Part shown: positions 1 to 41,942 of the stretch, in pieces | How the letters are laid out: every line of letters starts with the position of its first letter | Position numbering within the stretch: position 1 is the stretch's first letter | Assembly: GCF_054482525.1 (NCBI RefSeq) | Contig: NZ_CM137006.1 | Reading direction: 5' to 3' (one strand) | DNA: 64,000 nucleotides | Notes under the pieces: model-generated | The model's database searches: none | What the model was told of the DNA's origin: nothing | Seen by the model: the letters and a program-made list of their open reading frames with translations, nothing else | Translations under genes and position numbers: made by a program

Positions 1-306
1 CAATCATCGAACCGAGGAACATCGGCATATCTGCGCCGACGATAACGCCCATGGTGGTGATGGCACCGACTACACCGCCACGTTCGCCGCCTACCAGCTT
101 ACCACCGGTATAACCGATCAGCAGCGGCAGGAGATAAGTGATCATCGGCCCGACCAGCTTCGCCAGCGTTTCGTTCGGTAACCACCCTGTTGGAATAAAT
201 AACGCGGTGATGATACCCCACGCGATAAACGCGCCGATATTTGGCATCACCATGTTGCTGAGGAAACGACCAAAGCTTTGCACTTTGATCTTAATATCGG
301 ATGACA
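1..306 (-). CDS. mtlA: PTS mannitol-specific EIICBA permease, N-terminal 102 codons (partial, continues past window start)
   Basis: Reverse translation from 306 gives [33 protein letters not shown]..., the MtlA N-terminus; ATG at 306..304 on minus strand. Confidence 0.9.
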
Positions 307-450
307 TAAAAACACCCCTTCTTATGTTTGCTGTCGCGCAGGCTGGAAGCCCGAGGTTTTTTGTTAATGTGGCGGCAGAGGTAGCCGGACCTTGTAGATA
401 CTGCGAAATCTGGCACTGAATCGGTTAACTGTCCAGTCGACGGCCTTTTG

Positions 451-466
451 TGTGATATCGGTCACA
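451..466. promoter_or_regulatory. CRP-type palindrome TGTGAtatcggTCACA upstream of mtlA
   Basis: Perfect TGTGA-N6-TCACA read directly; the mtlA promoter is known to carry multiple CRP sites. Confidence 0.55.
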
Positions 467-567
467 TAAATATAGGGGGTAGAGAGGTAATTGACGTGAT
501 GCTCATCACAAAACGCTTGTGTAAAAAAGCAACAAGGCGGCGATTTTCGCTAAAAATGGCATTTAAA

Positions 568-583
568 TGTGAGTAATGTCACA
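568..583. promoter_or_regulatory. CRP-type palindrome TGTGAgtaatgTCACA upstream of mtlA
   Basis: Perfect TGTGA-N6-TCACA read directly. Confidence 0.55.
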
Positions 584-611
584 TTTTTGTTTTGTTGGTT
601 TGTTGAATCTT

Positions 612-627
612 TGTGATCTGAATCACA
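612..627. promoter_or_regulatory. CRP-type palindrome TGTGAtctgaaTCACA upstream of mtlA
   Basis: Perfect TGTGA-N6-TCACA read directly; a further TGTGA half-site follows at about 655. Confidence 0.55.
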
Positions 628-843
628 AGATATTTTCTTACGACGTTCACCTGATGTGATCTGCAGCATGTTATGCCCTCGTCATAAAATCGTTATGTAA
701 CTAAGCAACTCATCACCTCTAAAAATTATTCTTTGGTGTTATGGCGAGAATCGCGAACCCGAATTATTGTCAAAATATCAGCCTGACTCCCTTCTGGCTG
801 CCAGCCAAAAAACAACACTGATAAACGTGAATCCGAGGCAGAT

Positions 844-1206
844 ATGTTTCTAAACTATTTCGCGTTGGGAGTGCTGATCTTCGTCTTTCTGGTGATTTTT
901 TATGGAATCATCGCGATACATGACATCCCTTATCTGATTGCCAAAAAGCGCAACCATCCCCATGCCGACGCTATTCATACGGCGGGCTGGGTGAGCCTGT
1001 TTACTCTGCATGTTATCTGGCCGTTTCTGTGGATCTGGGCGACGCTCTATCAACCGGAGCGTGGCTGGGGTATGCAGTCACATGTTGCGTCGCAGGAGAA
1101 AGCGACTGACCCGGAAATCGCCGCACTTTCTGACCGAATTTCCCGGCTGGAGCATCAACTCGCCGCCGAGAAAAAGACTGACTATTCCACGTTCCCGGAG
1201 ATCTAA
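844..1206 (+). CDS. yibI: DUF3302 inner-membrane protein
   Basis: 120-aa ORF with N-terminal hydrophobic segments; ATG preceded by GAGG; matches recalled YibI length and position next to yibH. Confidence 0.88.
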
Positions 1207-1208
1207 TT

Positions 1209-2345
1209 ATGGATCTATTGATCGTTTTAACTTACGTGGCGCTGGCGTGGGCGGTCTTTAAAATCTTCCGCATTCCGGTGAATCAGTGGACGCTGGCGAC
1301 GGCGGCGCTGGGAGGCGTGTTTCTGGTGAGTGGTTTGATTTTGTTGATGAACTACAATCACCCTTACACTTTTACCGCGCAAAAGGCAGTGATAGCGATC
1401 CCCATCACGCCACAGGTGACGGGAATTGTTACTGAAGTCACTGACAAGAATAATCAGCTTATTCAAAAGGGCGAGGTGCTTTTTAAACTCGACCCGGTTC
1501 GTTACCAGGCGCGAGTTGACAGACTTCAGGCTGACCTGATGACGGCGACGCATAATATAAAGACGCTGCGCGCGCAGCTCACTGAAGCGCAGGCCAACAC
1601 CACCCAGGTTTCAGCGGAGCGCGACCGTCTATTTAAAAATTATCAACGTTATCTGAAAGGCAGCCAGGCGGCGGTGAATCCGTTCTCGGAACGTGACATC
1701 GACGATGCGCGGCAAAACTTCCTCGCGCAGGACGCGCTGGTGAAAGGCTCGGTGGCGGAGCAGGCGCAGATCCAGAGCCAGCTCGACAGTATGGTTAACG
1801 GCGAGCAATCGCAGATTGTGAGCTTAAGAGCGCAACTTACTGAAGCAAAATATAACCTTGAGCAGACTGTCATTCGCGCACCAAGCAATGGCTACGTTAC
1901 TCAGGTACTGATCCGCCCAGGTACATACGCAGCTGCCTTGCCGCTACGTCCGGTGATGGTTTTCATCCCCGAGCAAAAACGGCAAATTGTCGCCCAATTT
2001 CGGCAAAACTCGCTGTTACGTCTGAAACCCGGCGATGATGCGGAAGTGGTGTTTAACGCGCTACCTGGGCAGGTGTTCCACGGCAAACTGACCAGTATTT
2101 TACCTGTCGTGCCAGGCGGTTCGTATCAGGCGCAAGGGGTATTGCAATCATTAACGGTCGTGCCCGGCACGGACGGTGTGCTGGGAACCATTGAACTGGA
2201 CCCTAACGCTGATATCGATGCCTTACCCGACGGCATCTACGCCCAGGTGGCAGTTTACTCCGACCATTTCAGCCATGTTTCGGTGATGCGGAAGGTGCTG
2301 CTGAGAATGACCAGTTGGATGCATTATCTTTATTTGGATCATTGA
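1209..2345 (+). CDS. yibH: HlyD-family membrane fusion protein
   Basis: 378-aa ORF, N-terminal TM helix then coiled-coil-rich region typical of HlyD/EmrA family; starts 3 bp after yibI stop. Confidence 0.88.
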
Positions 2346-2442
2346 GTAGGGAAGGGGGAGATTATGGAACTTTGCTCCCTGTAAGGACTAATTATTTTTG
2401 CATATTACTTCATTGGCTGCGATGATTTTTCGTTAATATCCA

Positions 2443-2650
2443 TTATGTTAAGAAGTTCGGGATGAGTGTGAACTCATTGGATTTTTTATCCGTCTTGATC
2501 TGCCGAAGGATCAGACCATACATTGTCGAGATCGCAATGATGATATGAGTTGTTCCTCTGCCACGGCTCTAATCAAAAAAGAGCAGGAGTGCTTTTCCAT
2601 CTATTGCGATGATGGCTTTATTATCTGAAGGATGACAGTCACATTTAAAA
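2443..2650 (-). pseudogene. Remnant of H-repeat (ISAs1-family) transposase, truncated both sides and frame-disrupted
   Basis: Minus-strand translation gives DNKAIIAIDGKALLLFFD* and [33 protein letters not shown], resembling the conserved DKDVIAIDGKTLR...[32 protein letters not shown] core of H-rpt proteins (recalled, e.g. YhhI). Confidence 0.45.
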
Positions 2651-2923
2651 ATATTTAATTTATAGATCACAATGTAGGTTCATGTAATATATGTATACAA
2701 CTATTTTTCTCTTCACTTTTAATTATCGTATTCATTATAACACTAAGTTAAAAAACTCCTGGAGAGTGAGTCATTAATATATTTTTAAATATAATTAAGT
2801 TATTATTCATCGATGCATTTTATAGAATCATCAATGGCTACAATAGTACTATTAACTCTCCAATTTATATTTTTATTATCATTGCAAATATTAACTGAAT
2901 CTATATCAATGATTTTTTTATTT

Positions 2924-3319
2924 TTATCTTTTATTTACAGTTTCAATGCAATCAGCGACAAGTTGGTGTGGATTTAGATTCTTCAGATATGGTCTTATGA
3001 TCTTTCCCTTGCTTAATAAATAGCATGTATAGGATTCGGAAAGTCCAGCATCTATTTTGTACATCATTATTCTAGATAAGGATGTGAGAAATGCCTTGTT
3101 ATCATTAGCAGCCATATATGCCAGTCCGAGTTCAGCCTCTGCGGCTTTACATGAAAAATAGCTAAGTGAACACGCTTTTCGTCCCTCTTGGGTACTGGCT
3201 GATATTAGTGCCCATAATATTGCCTTGTCTGCCAAATCCAACTCTCTCTGAAATTGGTTTACAGTAACTGCATTCGCAGAAATAGAGAAAAAAAGCACAA
3301 TTGTTAATAACCTTGCCAT
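2924..3319 (-). CDS. Orphan immunity-like protein for the adjacent Rhs C-terminal tip; predicted signal peptide
   Basis: 131-aa ORF starting ATG 5 bp after the Rhs-fragment stop; N-terminus MARLLTIVLFFSISANA looks like a Sec signal peptide; AT-rich codon usage. Confidence 0.6.
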   Translation of the reverse strand: MARLLTIVLFFSISANAVTVNQFQRELDLADKAILWALISASTQEGRKACSLSYFSCKAAEAELGLAYMAANDNKAFLTSLSRIMMYKIDAGLSESYTCYLLSKGKIIRPYLKNLNPHQLVADCIETVNKR

Positions 3320-3323
3320 ATTT

Positions 3324-4133
3324 CTAGTCCGTCACTGTTAATGTGCTATCTGGCTCTGAAAATATTAGCTCATTTAATTTTTGCATGTCATTAGATGAAC
3401 CAGTTATACAACCCTCGGAACAGAATCGAGGTCCTAAAGATGGACCAAAAGCGTTTAAACAACTATGTGTTAAAAATCCATCACGATTATACGTTTCTGT
3501 ATTTGCTGACGGTACTAAACGTATACCATTAGGTTTTCTATTAGTTGCTCCAGGACCATTAACATTCCAGCTCCATACCCCTGGAGGTATTGGGCCTCTA
3601 TTTTGTAAGTGTGTACAACCAGGATTATTTTTACATTGCATATTATTACCATTATTACCAGAGGCGACTGAAATAGTAAGCACACCATAAGAATTATCAT
3701 CACTTGGCGTATCTGAAACGCATGAAAGCATACCTAAAGTTATGCTGTATAAACAGGTCGCTAATCCCAACGGGTCAATATCAGTTATCGGATTCAACGG
3801 ATACTGATAAAAATTCCATCCCCCCTTCAGTCCAATCGGATCCTGAGTGATATACCGCCCCTGCAGCTGGTGCGGGTTCTCTTCATTCAGCAGGTTGCCC
3901 CACTCATCGTATTCTGCGCACCATTCTGTTGCCCCTTCCGTGCTGATAAGCACCAGCGGCAGGCCGCGATGGTCGCAGTGGTACAGGTGGATTTTTCGCG
4001 CCGGCGTGTACACCGGGTCCATCTGGTTTTGCATCTGCGCCACCGTCAGGCCGCACGATGCCAGCCAGCGTCGGCTTTCCTCACTCACCCGGTCAGCCAG
4101 GATTTCACTTTCCAGCCGGTCGAGCATCTGCAC
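3324..4133 (-). CDS. Orphan Rhs C-terminal fragment (core end plus divergent toxin tip); no own ATG start
   Basis: Translation [29 protein letters not shown]...[18 protein letters not shown] is near-identical to the rhsA core end in this window, then diverges after the DPxGL motif into a unique Cys-rich tip; ORF-track start is a GTG that is an internal Val codon in rhsA. Confidence 0.7.
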
Positions 4134-4174
4134 CGTGCCGGCGGGAATACCTCACTGTGCATAGGCAACTCACG

Positions 4175-5017
4175 CTATGAACGCTTCAGCTTATCAATAA
4201 CGGAAGTTATAATTTCATTGTCATCAAACTTGTACAACATAGTATCTAAAACAGGAAGTAGCGTTTTATCACCTAATTCACCCGCAGCTTCAATGATATC
4301 ATCATAAACAGTATTTTTTTTTAACTCATCGCATAAAACAGATAAAACCCTTTTATCTTTTCTGTAGGAAAGTCCGATTATTGCTTCAATACGGACTTCC
4401 TCATTTTTATCCTGAAGCATCTCCACAAAATAATCCCTAATATCACTATTATCATATTTATTGATATTTATTGCAAATGCGGCCCAGTTTCTGACATCTC
4501 CATTTGGATCTTTTAACAGATTAATCAATAGTGGAATTGTTTCTTTATCATTGATAACAGAAATAGCAAATGCCGTAGCACGTCTGACATTAGCCGATTT
4601 ATCAAAAGCAGTAATTTGAGATTGTTCTACTATTTTAGGTGAATAAATTGGGTTTTTCTTGCATCGCTGAGCAGTTGACTCGATTGCTGTAGCTCGAACG
4701 CAAGCACTTTTATCATTCAGTGCCATCTTTTTTAAAATATTAAAAACGCTATCTTCGCATTTTTTGCAAACTTTTATTTGCCCGAGTATAAATGCTCCTA
4801 TATCTCTACGGATATAATTTTTGTCAGCGCAGAATTCAATTGCCAATCTAACAGCGTCTTGCCCACCTCTTAGCTGCAATACTCTGGCAGATGAAATCCT
4901 TTTCAATGAATTGCGATTATCAAGTAAGCGAAATAATTCATCATCATTTAGTTTCTTACATTGATTGTATAAACCATACTCTTTACTTGCCTTTCTTTTC
5001 TGGTATGTATTCGACAT
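4175..5017 (-). CDS. yibA: HEAT-repeat protein
   Basis: Translation MSNTYQKRKASKEYGLYNQCKKLNDDELFRLLDN... matches recalled YibA (280 aa); GGAGG RBS 8 nt upstream of ATG at 5017. ORF-track start at 5032 is a 5-codon extension. Confidence 0.85.
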   Translation of the reverse strand: MSNTYQKRKASKEYGLYNQCKKLNDDELFRLLDNRNSLKRISSARVLQLRGGQDAVRLAIEFCADKNYIRRDIGAFILGQIKVCKKCEDSVFNILKKMALNDKSACVRATAIESTAQRCKKNPIYSPKIVEQSQITAFDKSANVRRATAFAISVINDKETIPLLINLLKDPNGDVRNWAAFAININKYDNSDIRDYFVEMLQDKNEEVRIEAIIGLSYRKDKRVLSVLCDELKKNTVYDDIIEAAGELGDKTLLPVLDTMLYKFDDNEIITSVIDKLKRS

Positions 5018-6993: not shown

Positions 6994-7341
6994 TTACGAA
7001 ACACACCTTGGTAAAATATTTGAATCGTCTGAACAGTGGATTATTTTGTGTATTACATCCAACGCTTGCCCATCTTTTTTCGCTATTAGTATTGTAAAAT
7101 TTCCTCCTAACGTCTTCGGTTGTTTTCCCTCGATTTTCCAACAATTATTGTCATCTGTAATACTATATGGTTTCTGAAATTCTGCTTTTTCTTTCCCGTA
7201 TATATATTTAATATAAACATATGATAATTCCAAAGCCATTTCACGACTATTTACTAAAATTTCCGCTGAATTTTCTTTTCCAAATACTGAGTGTGATATT
7301 GTAAACAATATCATAATAAGTAATATTAGTGAGTTTCTCAT
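6994..7341 (-). CDS. Secreted NTF2-like (YbbC/YhhH-family-like) immunity-type protein
   Basis: 115-aa ORF, ATG with AGGTG RBS; N-terminal signal peptide MRNSLILLIMILFTISHSVFG; shares motif pattern with 5122..5391. Confidence 0.6.
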   Translation of the reverse strand: MRNSLILLIMILFTISHSVFGKENSAEILVNSREMALELSYVYIKYIYGKEKAEFQKPYSITDDNNCWKIEGKQPKTLGGNFTILIAKKDGQALDVIHKIIHCSDDSNILPRCVS

Positions 7342-7509
7342 GCTCTACACCTATCGAATCTCAAAAGTTGTGGGTAAAACATTACATTCAGAATATATGA
7401 TATTCTTACCATCGGAATCCATTTTTCCAAATCGACCTTCTGGTGTTCCTGGATACCCATTAAGAACATATTTTTTCGAATAGTTAATTTATTTTCTCAG
7501 GAAGAGATT

Positions 7510-8079
7510 TTATTTTTCTTCACTACGAAGTAGTTCATGCTGTACTTTTGTTAAACATTCGTAAGACTCATCTTTGTTCGGGAGATGTGCTGTCATTCGA
7601 GCATAAGTTGGCTTCTCATCTTTAAAATATTTAACCATGATTGAATTATCAAGGACTGCCAACAACTGAGCTGGATCACTGCTCTTTTTTTGATAGATAC
7701 CCGCTCTTATATAACTTCTAAACCGATCGCCGAGAAACGCCGTTTTTTCTGCTGTATTTAGCAACTCCTGCAACGTTCCTTTGGTTGCATGATTTTCATT
7801 AAGGCGTAGTGATCCGACGCGAATTAAGAGTCTCGCCCCGCTTGGTGTGAATTTGTTATTTTTACATATACCAAGCTCTGTTTGCCAATAATACTCACCT
7901 ATGTCCTCATTCTGATACCATCTCCACATGGTTTTATTATTTAAGACAGGAAACGCGGAAAAAATAGTACCCTTAGTGAAAATGGTAAAGCAATCTTGAT
8001 CTTTAGCTTGTGTTTCGCAATTAGCTATAACACCAAAACTAACGAATATCATCAGCAAAAAGAACAAAGCTCTTTTCAT
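7510..8079 (-). CDS. Putative cognate immunity protein of RhsA (secreted)
   Basis: 189-aa ORF whose ATG overlaps the rhsA stop by 4 bp (8076..8079); N-terminal signal peptide [19 protein letters not shown]; AT-rich relative to the rhsA core. Confidence 0.65.
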
Positions 8080-11000
8080 TTTCTTATTCCTCTCGATGTT
8101 CTCTGTTTCATTTTAGCTAAAATTTCACCCAAATCATCTATCCCTGCTGTTGCTGGCCCATCGGGTTTATTAATGTCTGGGAATAAATAGGGTTCTGCAC
8201 AAGTATATCCTGGTGGTAATTGAGTTGTTGGCCAAGTTGTCTGTGGCAGGTAATCACTTGCTGTCTTTGTCTCCATCCCTGGATACTGGGGATCATCCTG
8301 CGGCGTACAAGTCAGATTGGGTTTTACCCACTTCCTGCAATACAGTGTGTAATCGTAAGGACTTAATGCTCTGAAGAATGTTTTGAAAACATTAGGCGCA
8401 CTACTGGCCTGGTCAATAGGATATGGCAGTCTTAATTGTTTCGCTATGTCTGGCAACTTACTTGGATCGGGCGTAGGCGGTTTGTTGGGTCTCGCTCCAT
8501 ATCCGCCATTATTTAAGTGTCCATATTTAGATGCCAGTCCCATTGAATCTATATACTGAACCGGATTTAACGGATACTGATAAAAATTCCATCCCCCCTT
8601 CAGTCCAATCGGATCCTGAGTGATATACCGCCCCTGCAGCGGGTCATAATAGCGGTGGCGGTTGTAATACAGGCCTGACTCCTCATCATACTGCTGACCC
8701 GGCAGGCGGATGAGCTGCTGCAGCTGGTGCGGGTTATCCTCACTCAGCTGGTTACCCCATTCATCGTATTCTGCGTACCATTCTGTTGCCCCTTCCGTGC
8801 TGACAAGCGCCAGCGGCAGGCCGCGATGGTCGCAGTGGTACAGGTGGATTTTTCGCGCCGGCGTGTACACCGGGTCCATCTGGTTTTGCATCTGCTCCAC
8901 CGTCAGGCCGCACGATGCCAGCCAGCGGCGGCTTTCCTCACTCACCCGGTCAGTAAGGATTTCACTTTCCAGCCGGTCGAGCATCTGCACCAGCACCGGC
9001 GGGAACACCACATCACCACCGTCTTCACCGCCGGACTGCTGAAGCGCATCCGCCAGGCTGCGGCGCTGCGTTTTCGCCAGCTCACCGGTGGCAGTTTCAA
9101 CTCTGATGAGTGGCGTGAAGCTCCCCGGCTGATAAACCGTCTGGATGCGGGTTCTGTCGTTCTGTATCGTGGTCAGCCGGTCGCCGTCCCAGCCGTACCA
9201 GGTCACTTCCGGTTTCCGTGACAGCGACATCCAGCCCGTCAGGTCCCGTTCACGCCGCCACACCCGTTTTGCCACCCTGCGGCCCAGCGGGTCGTAAAGA
9301 TAGCGACTTTCGACCAGCGGCTCTGCATATTGTGTCCGCGTGTAGTGCACCAGCCGGTGCTGACTGTCGTAATGGTACTGGTGAGTCCGCTCATCATCCG
9401 TGCGGATAACCCCTTCCGGGATGAGGTCGGTTTTCTCTGTCAGCCTGCCGTGACGGTCATACCGGTAAAGATAGTGCGCGTCACGGGCGATACGGTTATC
9501 CGGCCACATGCTGAGGGTGCTGTCCGGGTGCAGCTCCGGGTCGGGCAGGCGGTTACCTGCCGGGTCTGTGGCATACGGGATGCGGATATCAAGGTTCGCT
9601 GCCGTGGTGTGAACGCCGGTCAGCCTGCCGGAGTCGCTGTAGCTGTAACTCCGGGTCTGGCGCGGGCTGCTGATGCGGATGAGTTCGCCGTTGTCGTTCC
9701 AGGTGTAATCGCGGTCATACTGCAGGCTGTTCAGATGCTGGCTCTGTAACTGCCCGGCAGGGGTGTAAGCGGTGGTGAGTTCATAACGGCCGAAGCTGCG
9801 CAGCGTTTCCCGGTGCAGGCGGTCGCGGGTGAAATCCACCAGCGGTGTGTCGCCGAGTTTCATGCCTGACAGCCAGCCGCTGCCGTAGGTCAGCCATTCC
9901 ACGGCGGGCAGGCTGTCCGGTATACAGCGGTTCGCCAGTCCCTGCGCGTTGTAAGCGTGTCTGGTTTCATGCTGCCAGAGCAGTGCTTCCGTCTGCGGGT
10001 GATGCACCGTCTGGCGCTCACCGGTCAGGCGGCCTTTCTCATCATACCCGTAATGCACCGTCACCCGGTGGCCTTCGCTGAGATGGCTGATTTGTGTCAG
10101 CCAGCCGCGTTCGTCATACTGCCACTGCTCTGCCGGTTCACCCTTCACGGTGCGGTGAGTGAGGCGGTCTGCTTCGTCATAGTGCCAGTGGGTGACCAGC
10201 CCCTCATCCTCGCTGCGGATAAGTTTGCCGGTCAGGTCGTGGTGATAACGCTGTGTGCGGCCGTCAAAGCCGGTTTCCTGTATCAGCCGGTCAAGTACAT
10301 CGTAACGGAAGGTGGTGTGGCTGCCGTTTTCACTGGTCAGGCGGATGACCCGTCCGGCAGCATCGTATTCCATACTGCGCGTCAGACCGCCCTGCGTGGT
10401 ACGGATGGCCTTTCCCCACGCATCGTACTGTGTCCCGTTTCTGCTGCCGTCCGGGGCAATGACGGCGGTCAGGTCACCGGCGGCGTTGTATTCATACCGC
10501 GTTTCATGGCCCTGCATGTCTTTCACCGCAATTAACTGTCCACGGCTGTCGTATGCGCGGTACTGGCTCAGGCCTTCCTCGCGGTGCACCGCCGTCACCT
10601 GACCAAAACGGTCATGGTCATAACGGGTTACATAACCGGAACAGTCAGTGACGGTCAGCAACTGACCGTAACGGCTCCATGTCATGGTTTTCCGGCTGCC
10701 GGTGGCATCCTCCGTTGCGCAGGGTAAGTCACTGTGTGGATTATCATAACGGTAGCGGGTGATATCGCCGTCAGGGGCAGTTTCCTGAATCAGACGGCCG
10801 GATTCATCATATTCCCGGCGTATTTCCAGCCCGTCAGTCCCGGTGGCTGACGTTAACTGGCTGTGGTGGTTATAGTAAAACGCCGATGCCCTGCCATCCG
10901 GCGTGGTGATGCGCGTGATGAGGCCCGTCACCACATCCGGGCTGTATTCTGTTGTCCGGCCTGCGGCATCCGTCTGTGCCTTAAGCCTGCCCACCGCATC

Positions 11001-40763: not shown

Positions 40764-41942
40764 CTACAACATGACCTCGCTATTTACATCGCGATACTCT
40801 TTTGGCGTCGTGTCATATGCTTTTTTAAAAACAGAGTAGAAATATTGCAGCGATGGATAACCGCACATTTGCGATATCTCATTGATCGACAAGGTGGTTG
40901 AAATCAGCAGACTGCGCGCTTTCTCCAACTTCTCGGCATGAATCATGGCATGGATGGTTTCACCCACCTCTTCTTTAAAACGCTTCTCAAGATTGGAGCG
41001 CGAGATCCCGACCGCATCGAGTACCTGATCCACTTTAATCCCTTTACAGGCGTGATTACGAATGTAATGCATGGCCTGAATAACGGCGGGATCGGTCAGC
41101 GAGCGGTAATCTGTTGAGCGCCGTTCAATGACGCGAACTGGTGGGACCAAAATCCGCTGTAGCGGCATTTCTTCTTTATCTAATAATCGATGCAACAGTT
41201 TTGCCGCCTGATAGCCCATTTGCCGTGCGCCCTGAGCGACCGAAGAAAGGGCGACACGCGACAGATAGCGGGTCAGTTCTTCGTTATCGATGCCAATCAC
41301 GCATAATTTTTCCGGTACGGGAATGTGTAGATGTTCACATACTTGCAGAATATGCCGTGCCCGGGCGTCAGTAACGGCAATAATCCCGGTTTGCGGTGGC
41401 AGCGTTTGTAGCCAGTCTGCCAGCCGATTTTGCGCGTGTTGCCAGTTCTCTGGCGCGGTTTCTAACCCCTGATAAACCACTCCGCGATACTTTTCTTCGG
41501 CGACAAGCTGACGAAATGCATATTCGCGTTCAGTGGCCCAACGTTTGCCGCTTGATTCCGGAAGACCATAAAAAGCAAAGCGGTTAACGCCTTTCTCTTT
41601 TAAATGCAAAAATGCGCTTTCAACCAGCGCATAGTTATCGGTGGCAATGTAATGAACGGGTGGGTAACTTTCGGCAAGGTGATACGAGCCACCAACCCCA
41701 ACAATGGGGACGTCGACATCAGCCAGCGCTTGCTCGATTTGTTTGTCGTCGAAGTCGGCAATGACGCCATCTCCTAACCAGTCCTTGATTTTATCAATGC
41801 GGGCGCGGAAATCTTCTTCAATGAAAATATCCCATTCCGATTGTGACGCCTGTAAATATTCCCCTACGCCTTCTACTACCTGCCGGTCATAGGCTTTATT
41901 GGCATTGAACAGTAATGTGATGCGGTGACGTTTAGTAAACAT
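40764..41942 (-). CDS. xylR: Xylose operon transcriptional activator (AraC-family with periplasmic-binding-protein-like domain)
   Basis: 392-aa ORF; C-terminal AraC HTH (INEISQMCGYPSLQYFYSVFKKAYDTTPKEYR). Confidence 0.93.
   Translation of the reverse strand: MFTKRHRITLLFNANKAYDRQVVEGVGEYLQASQSEWDIFIEEDFRARIDKIKDWLGDGVIADFDDKQIEQALADVDVPIVGVGGSYHLAESYPPVHYIATDNYALVESAFLHLKEKGVNRFAFYGLPESSGKRWATEREYAFRQLVAEEKYRGVVYQGLETAPENWQHAQNRLADWLQTLPPQTGIIAVTDARARHILQVCEHLHIPVPEKLCVIGIDNEELTRYLSRVALSSVAQGARQMGYQAAKLLHRLLDKEEMPLQRILVPPVRVIERRSTDYRSLTDPAVIQAMHYIRNHACKGIKVDQVLDAVGISRSNLEKRFKEEVGETIHAMIHAEKLEKARSLLISTTLSINEISQMCGYPSLQYFYSVFKKAYDTTPKEYRDVNSEVML

Follow-up and report, generated by a model that had tools for sequence, protein, structure and literature searches.

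The mtlA-yibI intergenic region of an Escherichia coli chromosome very probably carries the known five-site CRP operator of the mannitol operon

Introduction

The closest described system to the locus considered here is the mannitol (mtl) operon of Escherichia coli K-12, for which CRP binding and five CRP sites were reportedly documented earlier by Ramseier & Saier 1995. In a recent study based on EMSA and chromosomal site mutants, the centres of CRP5 to CRP1 are placed at -58.5, -102.5, -175.5, -219.5 and -262.5 (Lee et al., NAR 2026, PMC13421365). Replacing CRP2, CRP4 or CRP5 on the chromosome results in no mtlD expression and no growth on mannitol, replacement of CRP3 has a mild effect and replacement of CRP1 has none; on a probe carrying CRP1 to CRP3, CRP fills CRP2 and CRP3, and CRP1, a 7/10 site, stays empty (PMC13421365). 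The repressor of the operon, MtlR, is a protein without DNA-binding domain that represses by bridging two CRP dimers: MtlR supershifts are obtained solely with DNA bearing two CRP dimers 43-46 bp apart (optimum 44-45 bp), and neither the 73-bp CRP3-CRP4 pair nor malK (34 bp) is bound unless re-spaced to 44 bp (PMC13421365). Substitutions at the MtlR interface, R167E and L178A, cause the loss of repression in vivo (PMC13421365).

In the divergent malK-malE control region, too, three to four CRP sites cluster at a long distance upstream of a promoter for sugar transport. CytR, a member of the LacI family, binds its own DNA octamers (rule: GTTGCATT) between CRP sites spaced about 52-53 bp apart. 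MtlR differs from CytR in having no DNA-binding domain and in needing 43-46 bp, whereas both are anti-activator repressors that contact two tandem CRP dimers in a distance-specific manner, CytR doing so at deoP2, cdd and other promoters (PMC13421365). The adjacent sites of malK-malE differ from those of mtl by their 34-bp spacing, and MtlR binds once this spacing is lengthened to 44 bp (PMC13421365). In the mtl operators of Vibrio cholerae and Salmonella, CRP pairs are found 43-44 bp apart and an MtlR-CRP-DNA ternary complex is formed, as in K-12 (PMC13421365). V. cholerae differs in the presence of an antisense sRNA, MtlS, and in the absence of MtlR sequestration by EII-Mtl.

Results

We analysed a stretch of 64,000 bp of DNA, hereafter called the window, which belongs to an E. 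coli chromosome: strain PCN033, among others, matches positions 250-900 with 100% identity. This 250-900 region was found in 5402 of 5426 complete genomes, in which the allele carried by the window is a minority one (at least 99% identity in 115 of 5404 complete genomes). The genes at this end of the window are:

1-307, minus strand: mtlA (mannitol PTS enzyme IICBA), its 5' part with the first 102 codons, from translation and from the RefSeq annotation of genomes that match 250-900 identically.
844-1206, plus strand: yibI (DUF3302), the divergent neighbour, from the same RefSeq annotation.
1209-2345, plus strand: yibH, diverging together with yibI.

Positions 305-307 hold the mtlA ATG in reverse complement, and the gene leaves the window at its left end; beyond it, the operon reads mtlA-mtlD-mtlR in PCN033. 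On the other side, the DNA located 3' of yibH in PCN033 (7054-9268 of locus L160, by homology about 2800-5000 of the window) holds degraded Rhs toxin/immunity remnants, namely a frameshifted Imm57, a tlde1-domain protein and an RHS fragment, and then yibA. The mtlA and yibI genes are separated by an intergenic region of 536 bp, in which the CRP array sits.

A first-pass annotation of this DNA had claimed three perfect CRP palindromes upstream of mtlA, and all three are present: TGTGATATCGGTCACA at 451-466, TGTGAGTAATGTCACA at 568-583 and TGTGATCTGAATCACA at 612-627 each carry 10/10 CRP consensus bases around a 6-bp spacer. As mtlA is on the minus strand and starts at 307, they lie on its 5' side, 144-320 bp upstream of the ATG. 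No other perfect match to TGTGA-N6-TCACA occurs in the whole 64,000-bp window. Three perfect sites are only part of the array, which comprises five. When up to one mismatch was allowed, the same cluster gained CGTGATGCTCATCACA at 495-510 (9/10, CGTGA...TCACA), and a fifth site, TGTGATCTGCAGCATG at 655-670, was spotted by eye (7/10, TGTGA...GCATG). The array therefore consists of two-fold symmetric CRP cores, three of 10/10, one of 9/10 and one of 7/10, with centres at 458.5, 502.5, 575.5, 619.5 and 662.5, hence spacings of 44/73/44/43 bp. The sole further match to the CRP core with at most one mismatch in the window is TGTGTAGATGTTCACA at 41324-41339. Short palindromes could cluster by chance in AT-rich intergenic DNA, an explanation for which the short length of the motif speaks, and nothing more. 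However, dinucleotide-preserving shuffles of the 64-kb window yielded a mean of 0.03 perfect-core matches with a maximum of 1, and three or more were found in 0 of 100 shuffles.

Alignment of the whole intergenic region to that of K-12 MG1655 showed 12 substitutions and no indel, and all 50 pentamer positions were the same. Because the 44/73/44/43 spacings match the published ones and the K-12 alignment contains no indel, the three perfect palindromes correspond to CRP5, CRP3 and CRP2. The sites of the array are as follows, the requirements being those established in K-12:

451-466, unstranded: CRP5, perfect (10/10), centre -58.5; promoter-proximal, essential for activation.
495-510, unstranded: CRP4, 9/10, centre -102.5, 44 bp from CRP5; essential.
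568-583, unstranded: CRP3, 10/10 with AAA/TTT flanks, centre -175.5, 73 bp from CRP4; contributory.
612-627, unstranded: CRP2, 10/10, centre -219.5, 44 bp from CRP3; essential.
655-670, unstranded: CRP1, weak (7/10), centre -262.5, 43 bp from CRP2; dispensable.

The assignment of the palindromes to the mannitol operon by the first-pass annotation thus agrees with the spacings and positions of K-12 CRP5 to CRP1, and published K-12 binding data place CRP exactly at these sites rather than elsewhere. The window and the K-12 mtlADR operator-promoter share the locus, the five sites and their pentamers, the spacings, the -35 and -10 elements and the absence of indels over 536 bp. They differ by the 12 substitutions, six of which fall within the N6 spacers of CRP5, CRP4, CRP3 and CRP1; in CRP5, for instance, the window has CGG where K-12 has CAA (plus strand). 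The alleles of this strain, which within the sites differ from K-12 only in the N6 spacers, presumably behave alike.

We then considered variation within E. coli. The 30 N6 positions account for six of the 12 intergenic differences from K-12 (p = 2e-5) and, among 70 sequences, for 11 of the 38 polymorphic columns. In the 58 sequences with aligning flanking genes, pi reached 0.080 in N6, as against 0.0265 for third codon positions, 0.0035 for the remainder of the region and 0.0007 for the pentamers. The spacers of CRP5, CRP4, CRP3 and CRP1 (456-461, 500-505, 573-578 and 660-665) are the most polymorphic intergenic positions, and that of CRP2 is almost invariant. At CRP4, five spacer haplotypes were counted in complete genomes (CGT 2350, TAC 654, CAT 191, TGC 177 and TGT 76), a sixth is found in strain WWCOL-236, and at the adjacent sites 500 and 501 four of four base combinations are seen. 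Yet a mutation hotspot in N6 is not demonstrated by these figures: the metagenome sample was selected by an exact 19-mer, so that the common B2/ST131 allele, in which 2 of 11 differences fall in N6, was left out, and N6 exceeds third positions only marginally (p = 0.01-0.06, post hoc, from non-independent samples). Because the excess is marginal and the sample biased, the N6 segments are best regarded as near-neutral spacers amid strong purifying selection.

Indels inside the array were absent from a spread sample of 40 genomes. The sole length change in this sample is a 1-bp deletion in WWCOL-236 near window position ~807, in an A-run just upstream of yibI and outside the array; this strain also has divergent spacers in CRP5 (TATGAA) and CRP4 (TGTGCA). 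In E. coli GPEC1054, an IS21-family element (istA/istB) is inserted at window position ~642/643, between CRP2 and CRP1, so that CRP2 to CRP5 remain with mtlA and CRP1 is cut off together with yibI, which is consistent with a dispensable CRP1.

The position of the array relative to the mtlA promoter was read as follows:

308-400, minus strand: inferred mtlA 5' untranslated leader of ~93 nt, the TSS being deduced from the published CRP5 position.
407-435, minus strand: core mtlA promoter, with -35 TGGACA (435-430), a 17-bp spacer, TG (415-414) and a weak -10 CAGATT (412-407), read from the sequence.
415-428, plus strand: candidate Cra (FruR) box, ACTGAATCGGTTAA, between the mtlA -35 and -10.

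The TSS was put at ~400 (minus strand) because CRP5 is published at -58.5 (PMC13421365). The -10 CAGATT has 3/6 consensus matches, and the -35 and -10 blocks are conserved, with column identities of 0.7-0.98 in 42 aligned species. A poor core with five upstream CRP sites corresponds to a Class III CRP-dependent promoter, which has at least two such sites. The mtlA promoter was not reported by a generic sigma-70 scan, which fits dependence on an activator; the lone promoter-like match of the scan (301-328, plus strand) and its lone terminator-like match (429-443) are at chance level. The published TSS derives from older S1 mapping. With its centre at -58.5, CRP5 misses the canonical Class I position (-61.5) by 3 bp.

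The candidate Cra box is a full match to the consensus RSTGAAWCSNTHHW, reportedly that of Ramseier et al. 1995, and we treat the box as a lead. This consensus has 4 matches in the window as against 0.56 expected, and the box at 415-428 is kept across Enterobacterales. Cra and Fis are listed in the literature as further repressors of the mtl operon. No RNA family was matched by an Rfam search (E-value) of window positions 1-3000, and therefore this part of the window has no MtlS-like sRNA.

To place the array in a wider context, the 700 bp upstream of mtlA were scanned at 80 mtlA loci, one per species. The exact 44/73/44 arrangement, with each of the four sites at 8/10 or better, was found in 41 species in addition to the window. 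With spacings relaxed to 43-45/72-74/43-45 and sites of at least 7/10, 61 of the 81 upstream regions carry the array, namely the window and those of 60 species belonging to Enterobacterales, Aeromonas (45/73/44), Tolumonas, Photobacterium, Agarivorans and some Vibrio, as compared to 0 of 4050 shuffled regions. In Pasteurellaceae and Gilliamella, it is reduced to one CRP pair, 43-44 bp apart. In 42 aligned loci, the information content was 1.82 bits in the pentamers, 0.46 in N6 and 0.57-0.80 in the inter-site DNA: the pentamers are constrained and the spacers free, beyond chance. The occurrence of this architecture in 60 species, set against its absence from all 4050 shuffles, leaves chance clustering with a negligible probability.

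The intergenic region is divergent and CRP1 lies 174 bp from the yibI start codon, and the distal sites CRP1 to CRP3 might be thought to belong to the yibI-yibH promoter or to be shared with it; no characterised yibI promoter was found in the accessible literature, which leaves room for this idea. However, the distance from the array to the mtlA start is near-constant among species and 44 of the 60 array-bearing species have no yibI homologue within 2.5 kb, so the array travels with mtlA and not with yibI. In addition, mutation of CRP2 abolishes mtl expression (PMC13421365), and the IS21 insertion in GPEC1054 parts yibI and CRP1 from CRP2 to CRP5, which are still beside mtlA. A shared yibI promoter was ruled out on synteny, and we regard an assignment of the distal sites to yibI-yibH as very improbable.

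Three adjacent pairs of the array, CRP5-CRP4 (44 bp), CRP3-CRP2 (44 bp) and CRP2-CRP1 (43 bp), fall within the 43-46 bp at which MtlR docks on two CRP dimers. The first-pass annotation had explained the clustering by the heavy CRP dependence of the operon; the role of CRP stands, but it is not the sole explanation, the 43-46 bp spacing being a recognition feature of MtlR. It could be argued that the sites merely activate, that MtlR represses through another DNA-binding partner and that the 44-bp spacing is kept for the geometry of activation. Choe et al. 2017, from the same laboratory, detected no MtlR-CRP interaction and proposed another partner (PMC5320558), and equally strict conservation is seen for the 73-bp gap, of which MtlR makes no use. 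Against this stand the supershifts, which need two CRP dimers 43-46 bp apart, the gain of MtlR binding by a malK operator changed from 34 to 44 bp and the loss of repression in vivo with R167E and L178A (PMC13421365), as well as the spacings of 43-45 bp in every lineage examined. Repression through another partner is therefore unlikely, and we keep a small weight on it because the earlier paper of the same group missed the MtlR-CRP interaction. Direct docking of MtlR on CRP pairs remains our preferred reading. By the rules for CytR-CRP operators, spacings of 44, 73, 44 and 43 bp do not describe such an operator; the 73-bp gap contains the lone CytR-octamer-like string, GTTGCTTT (7/8), which other genera have not kept.

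The gap between CRP3 and CRP4 is constant at 73 bp to within 1 bp in 61 loci, from Escherichia to Aeromonas, and is thus as strictly kept as the 44-bp gaps. Because this gap, unused by MtlR, is equally conserved, the spacing is also constrained for reasons other than MtlR. The gap (511-567) contains one further conserved element:

520-534, minus strand: conserved dyad TGTW-N7-TACA, TGTTGCTTTTTTACA, centre about -127.

In the 61 loci, the TGT and TACA positions of the dyad carry ~1.1 bits at a fixed offset from CRP4, with variants such as TGTA-T7-TACA (Enterobacter) and TGTAG-N5-CTACA (Aeromonas, Providencia); taken by itself, the pattern lacks specificity. Sites for CRP, LexA, TyrR, DeoR, IHF, Cra, CytR or LysR-type regulators were rejected, as the 9-nt TGT-to-ACA distance fits none of their consensuses. 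The Fis consensus fits loosely, at 5-6 of 7 positions. A Fis site at mtl was reportedly found by Gonzalez-Gil et al. 1996, and the dyad may equally be that site. The dyad is not discussed in PMC13421365. Judging from its conservation, it might conceivably serve an additional protein as its operator or act as an indispensable architectural element, a suggestion that we consider doubtful.

Discussion

The mtlA-yibI region of the window is very probably the known operator-promoter of mtlA-mtlD-mtlR, with five cAMP-CRP sites and docking of MtlR on CRP pairs. The sites, their chance expectation, the positional identity to K-12 and the conservation of the spacings were computed in this analysis, and what is said on binding of CRP, on the need for the individual sites and on the docking of MtlR is taken from the K-12 literature. 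The model of MtlR acting on CRP comes from one recent paper (PMC13421365). The palindromes belong to a CRP array that had been described before for the mtl operator; the first-pass annotation was right to regard it as known biology, the five CRP sites having already been published.

By analogy with K-12, high cAMP would place CRP dimers on CRP5, CRP4, CRP3 and CRP2, leading to Class III activation of a weak sigma-70 promoter, in which CRP5 probably touches RNA polymerase and the upstream CRP sites would have an architectural role. In the absence of mannitol, an MtlR dimer would bridge CRP4/5 and CRP2/3, or CRP1/2, and thereby block activation. When mannitol is present, dephosphorylated EII-Mtl (MtlA) would hold MtlR at the membrane.

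The striking clustering of CRP sites at this locus now has a published explanation, in which the CRP spacing serves as a docking code to a repressor with no DNA binding of its own. The operators of four species were compared in PMC13421365; our 80-species comparison widens this set and leaves the principle unchanged. It also shows that the whole 44/73/44 geometry, beyond the 44-bp pairs, is kept in Enterobacterales and Aeromonadales, which points to a constraint on the 73-bp gap. If the dyad in this gap did act as the operator of an additional protein or as indispensable architecture, this would account for the far-upstream CRP sites being essential, a point left open by PMC13421365.
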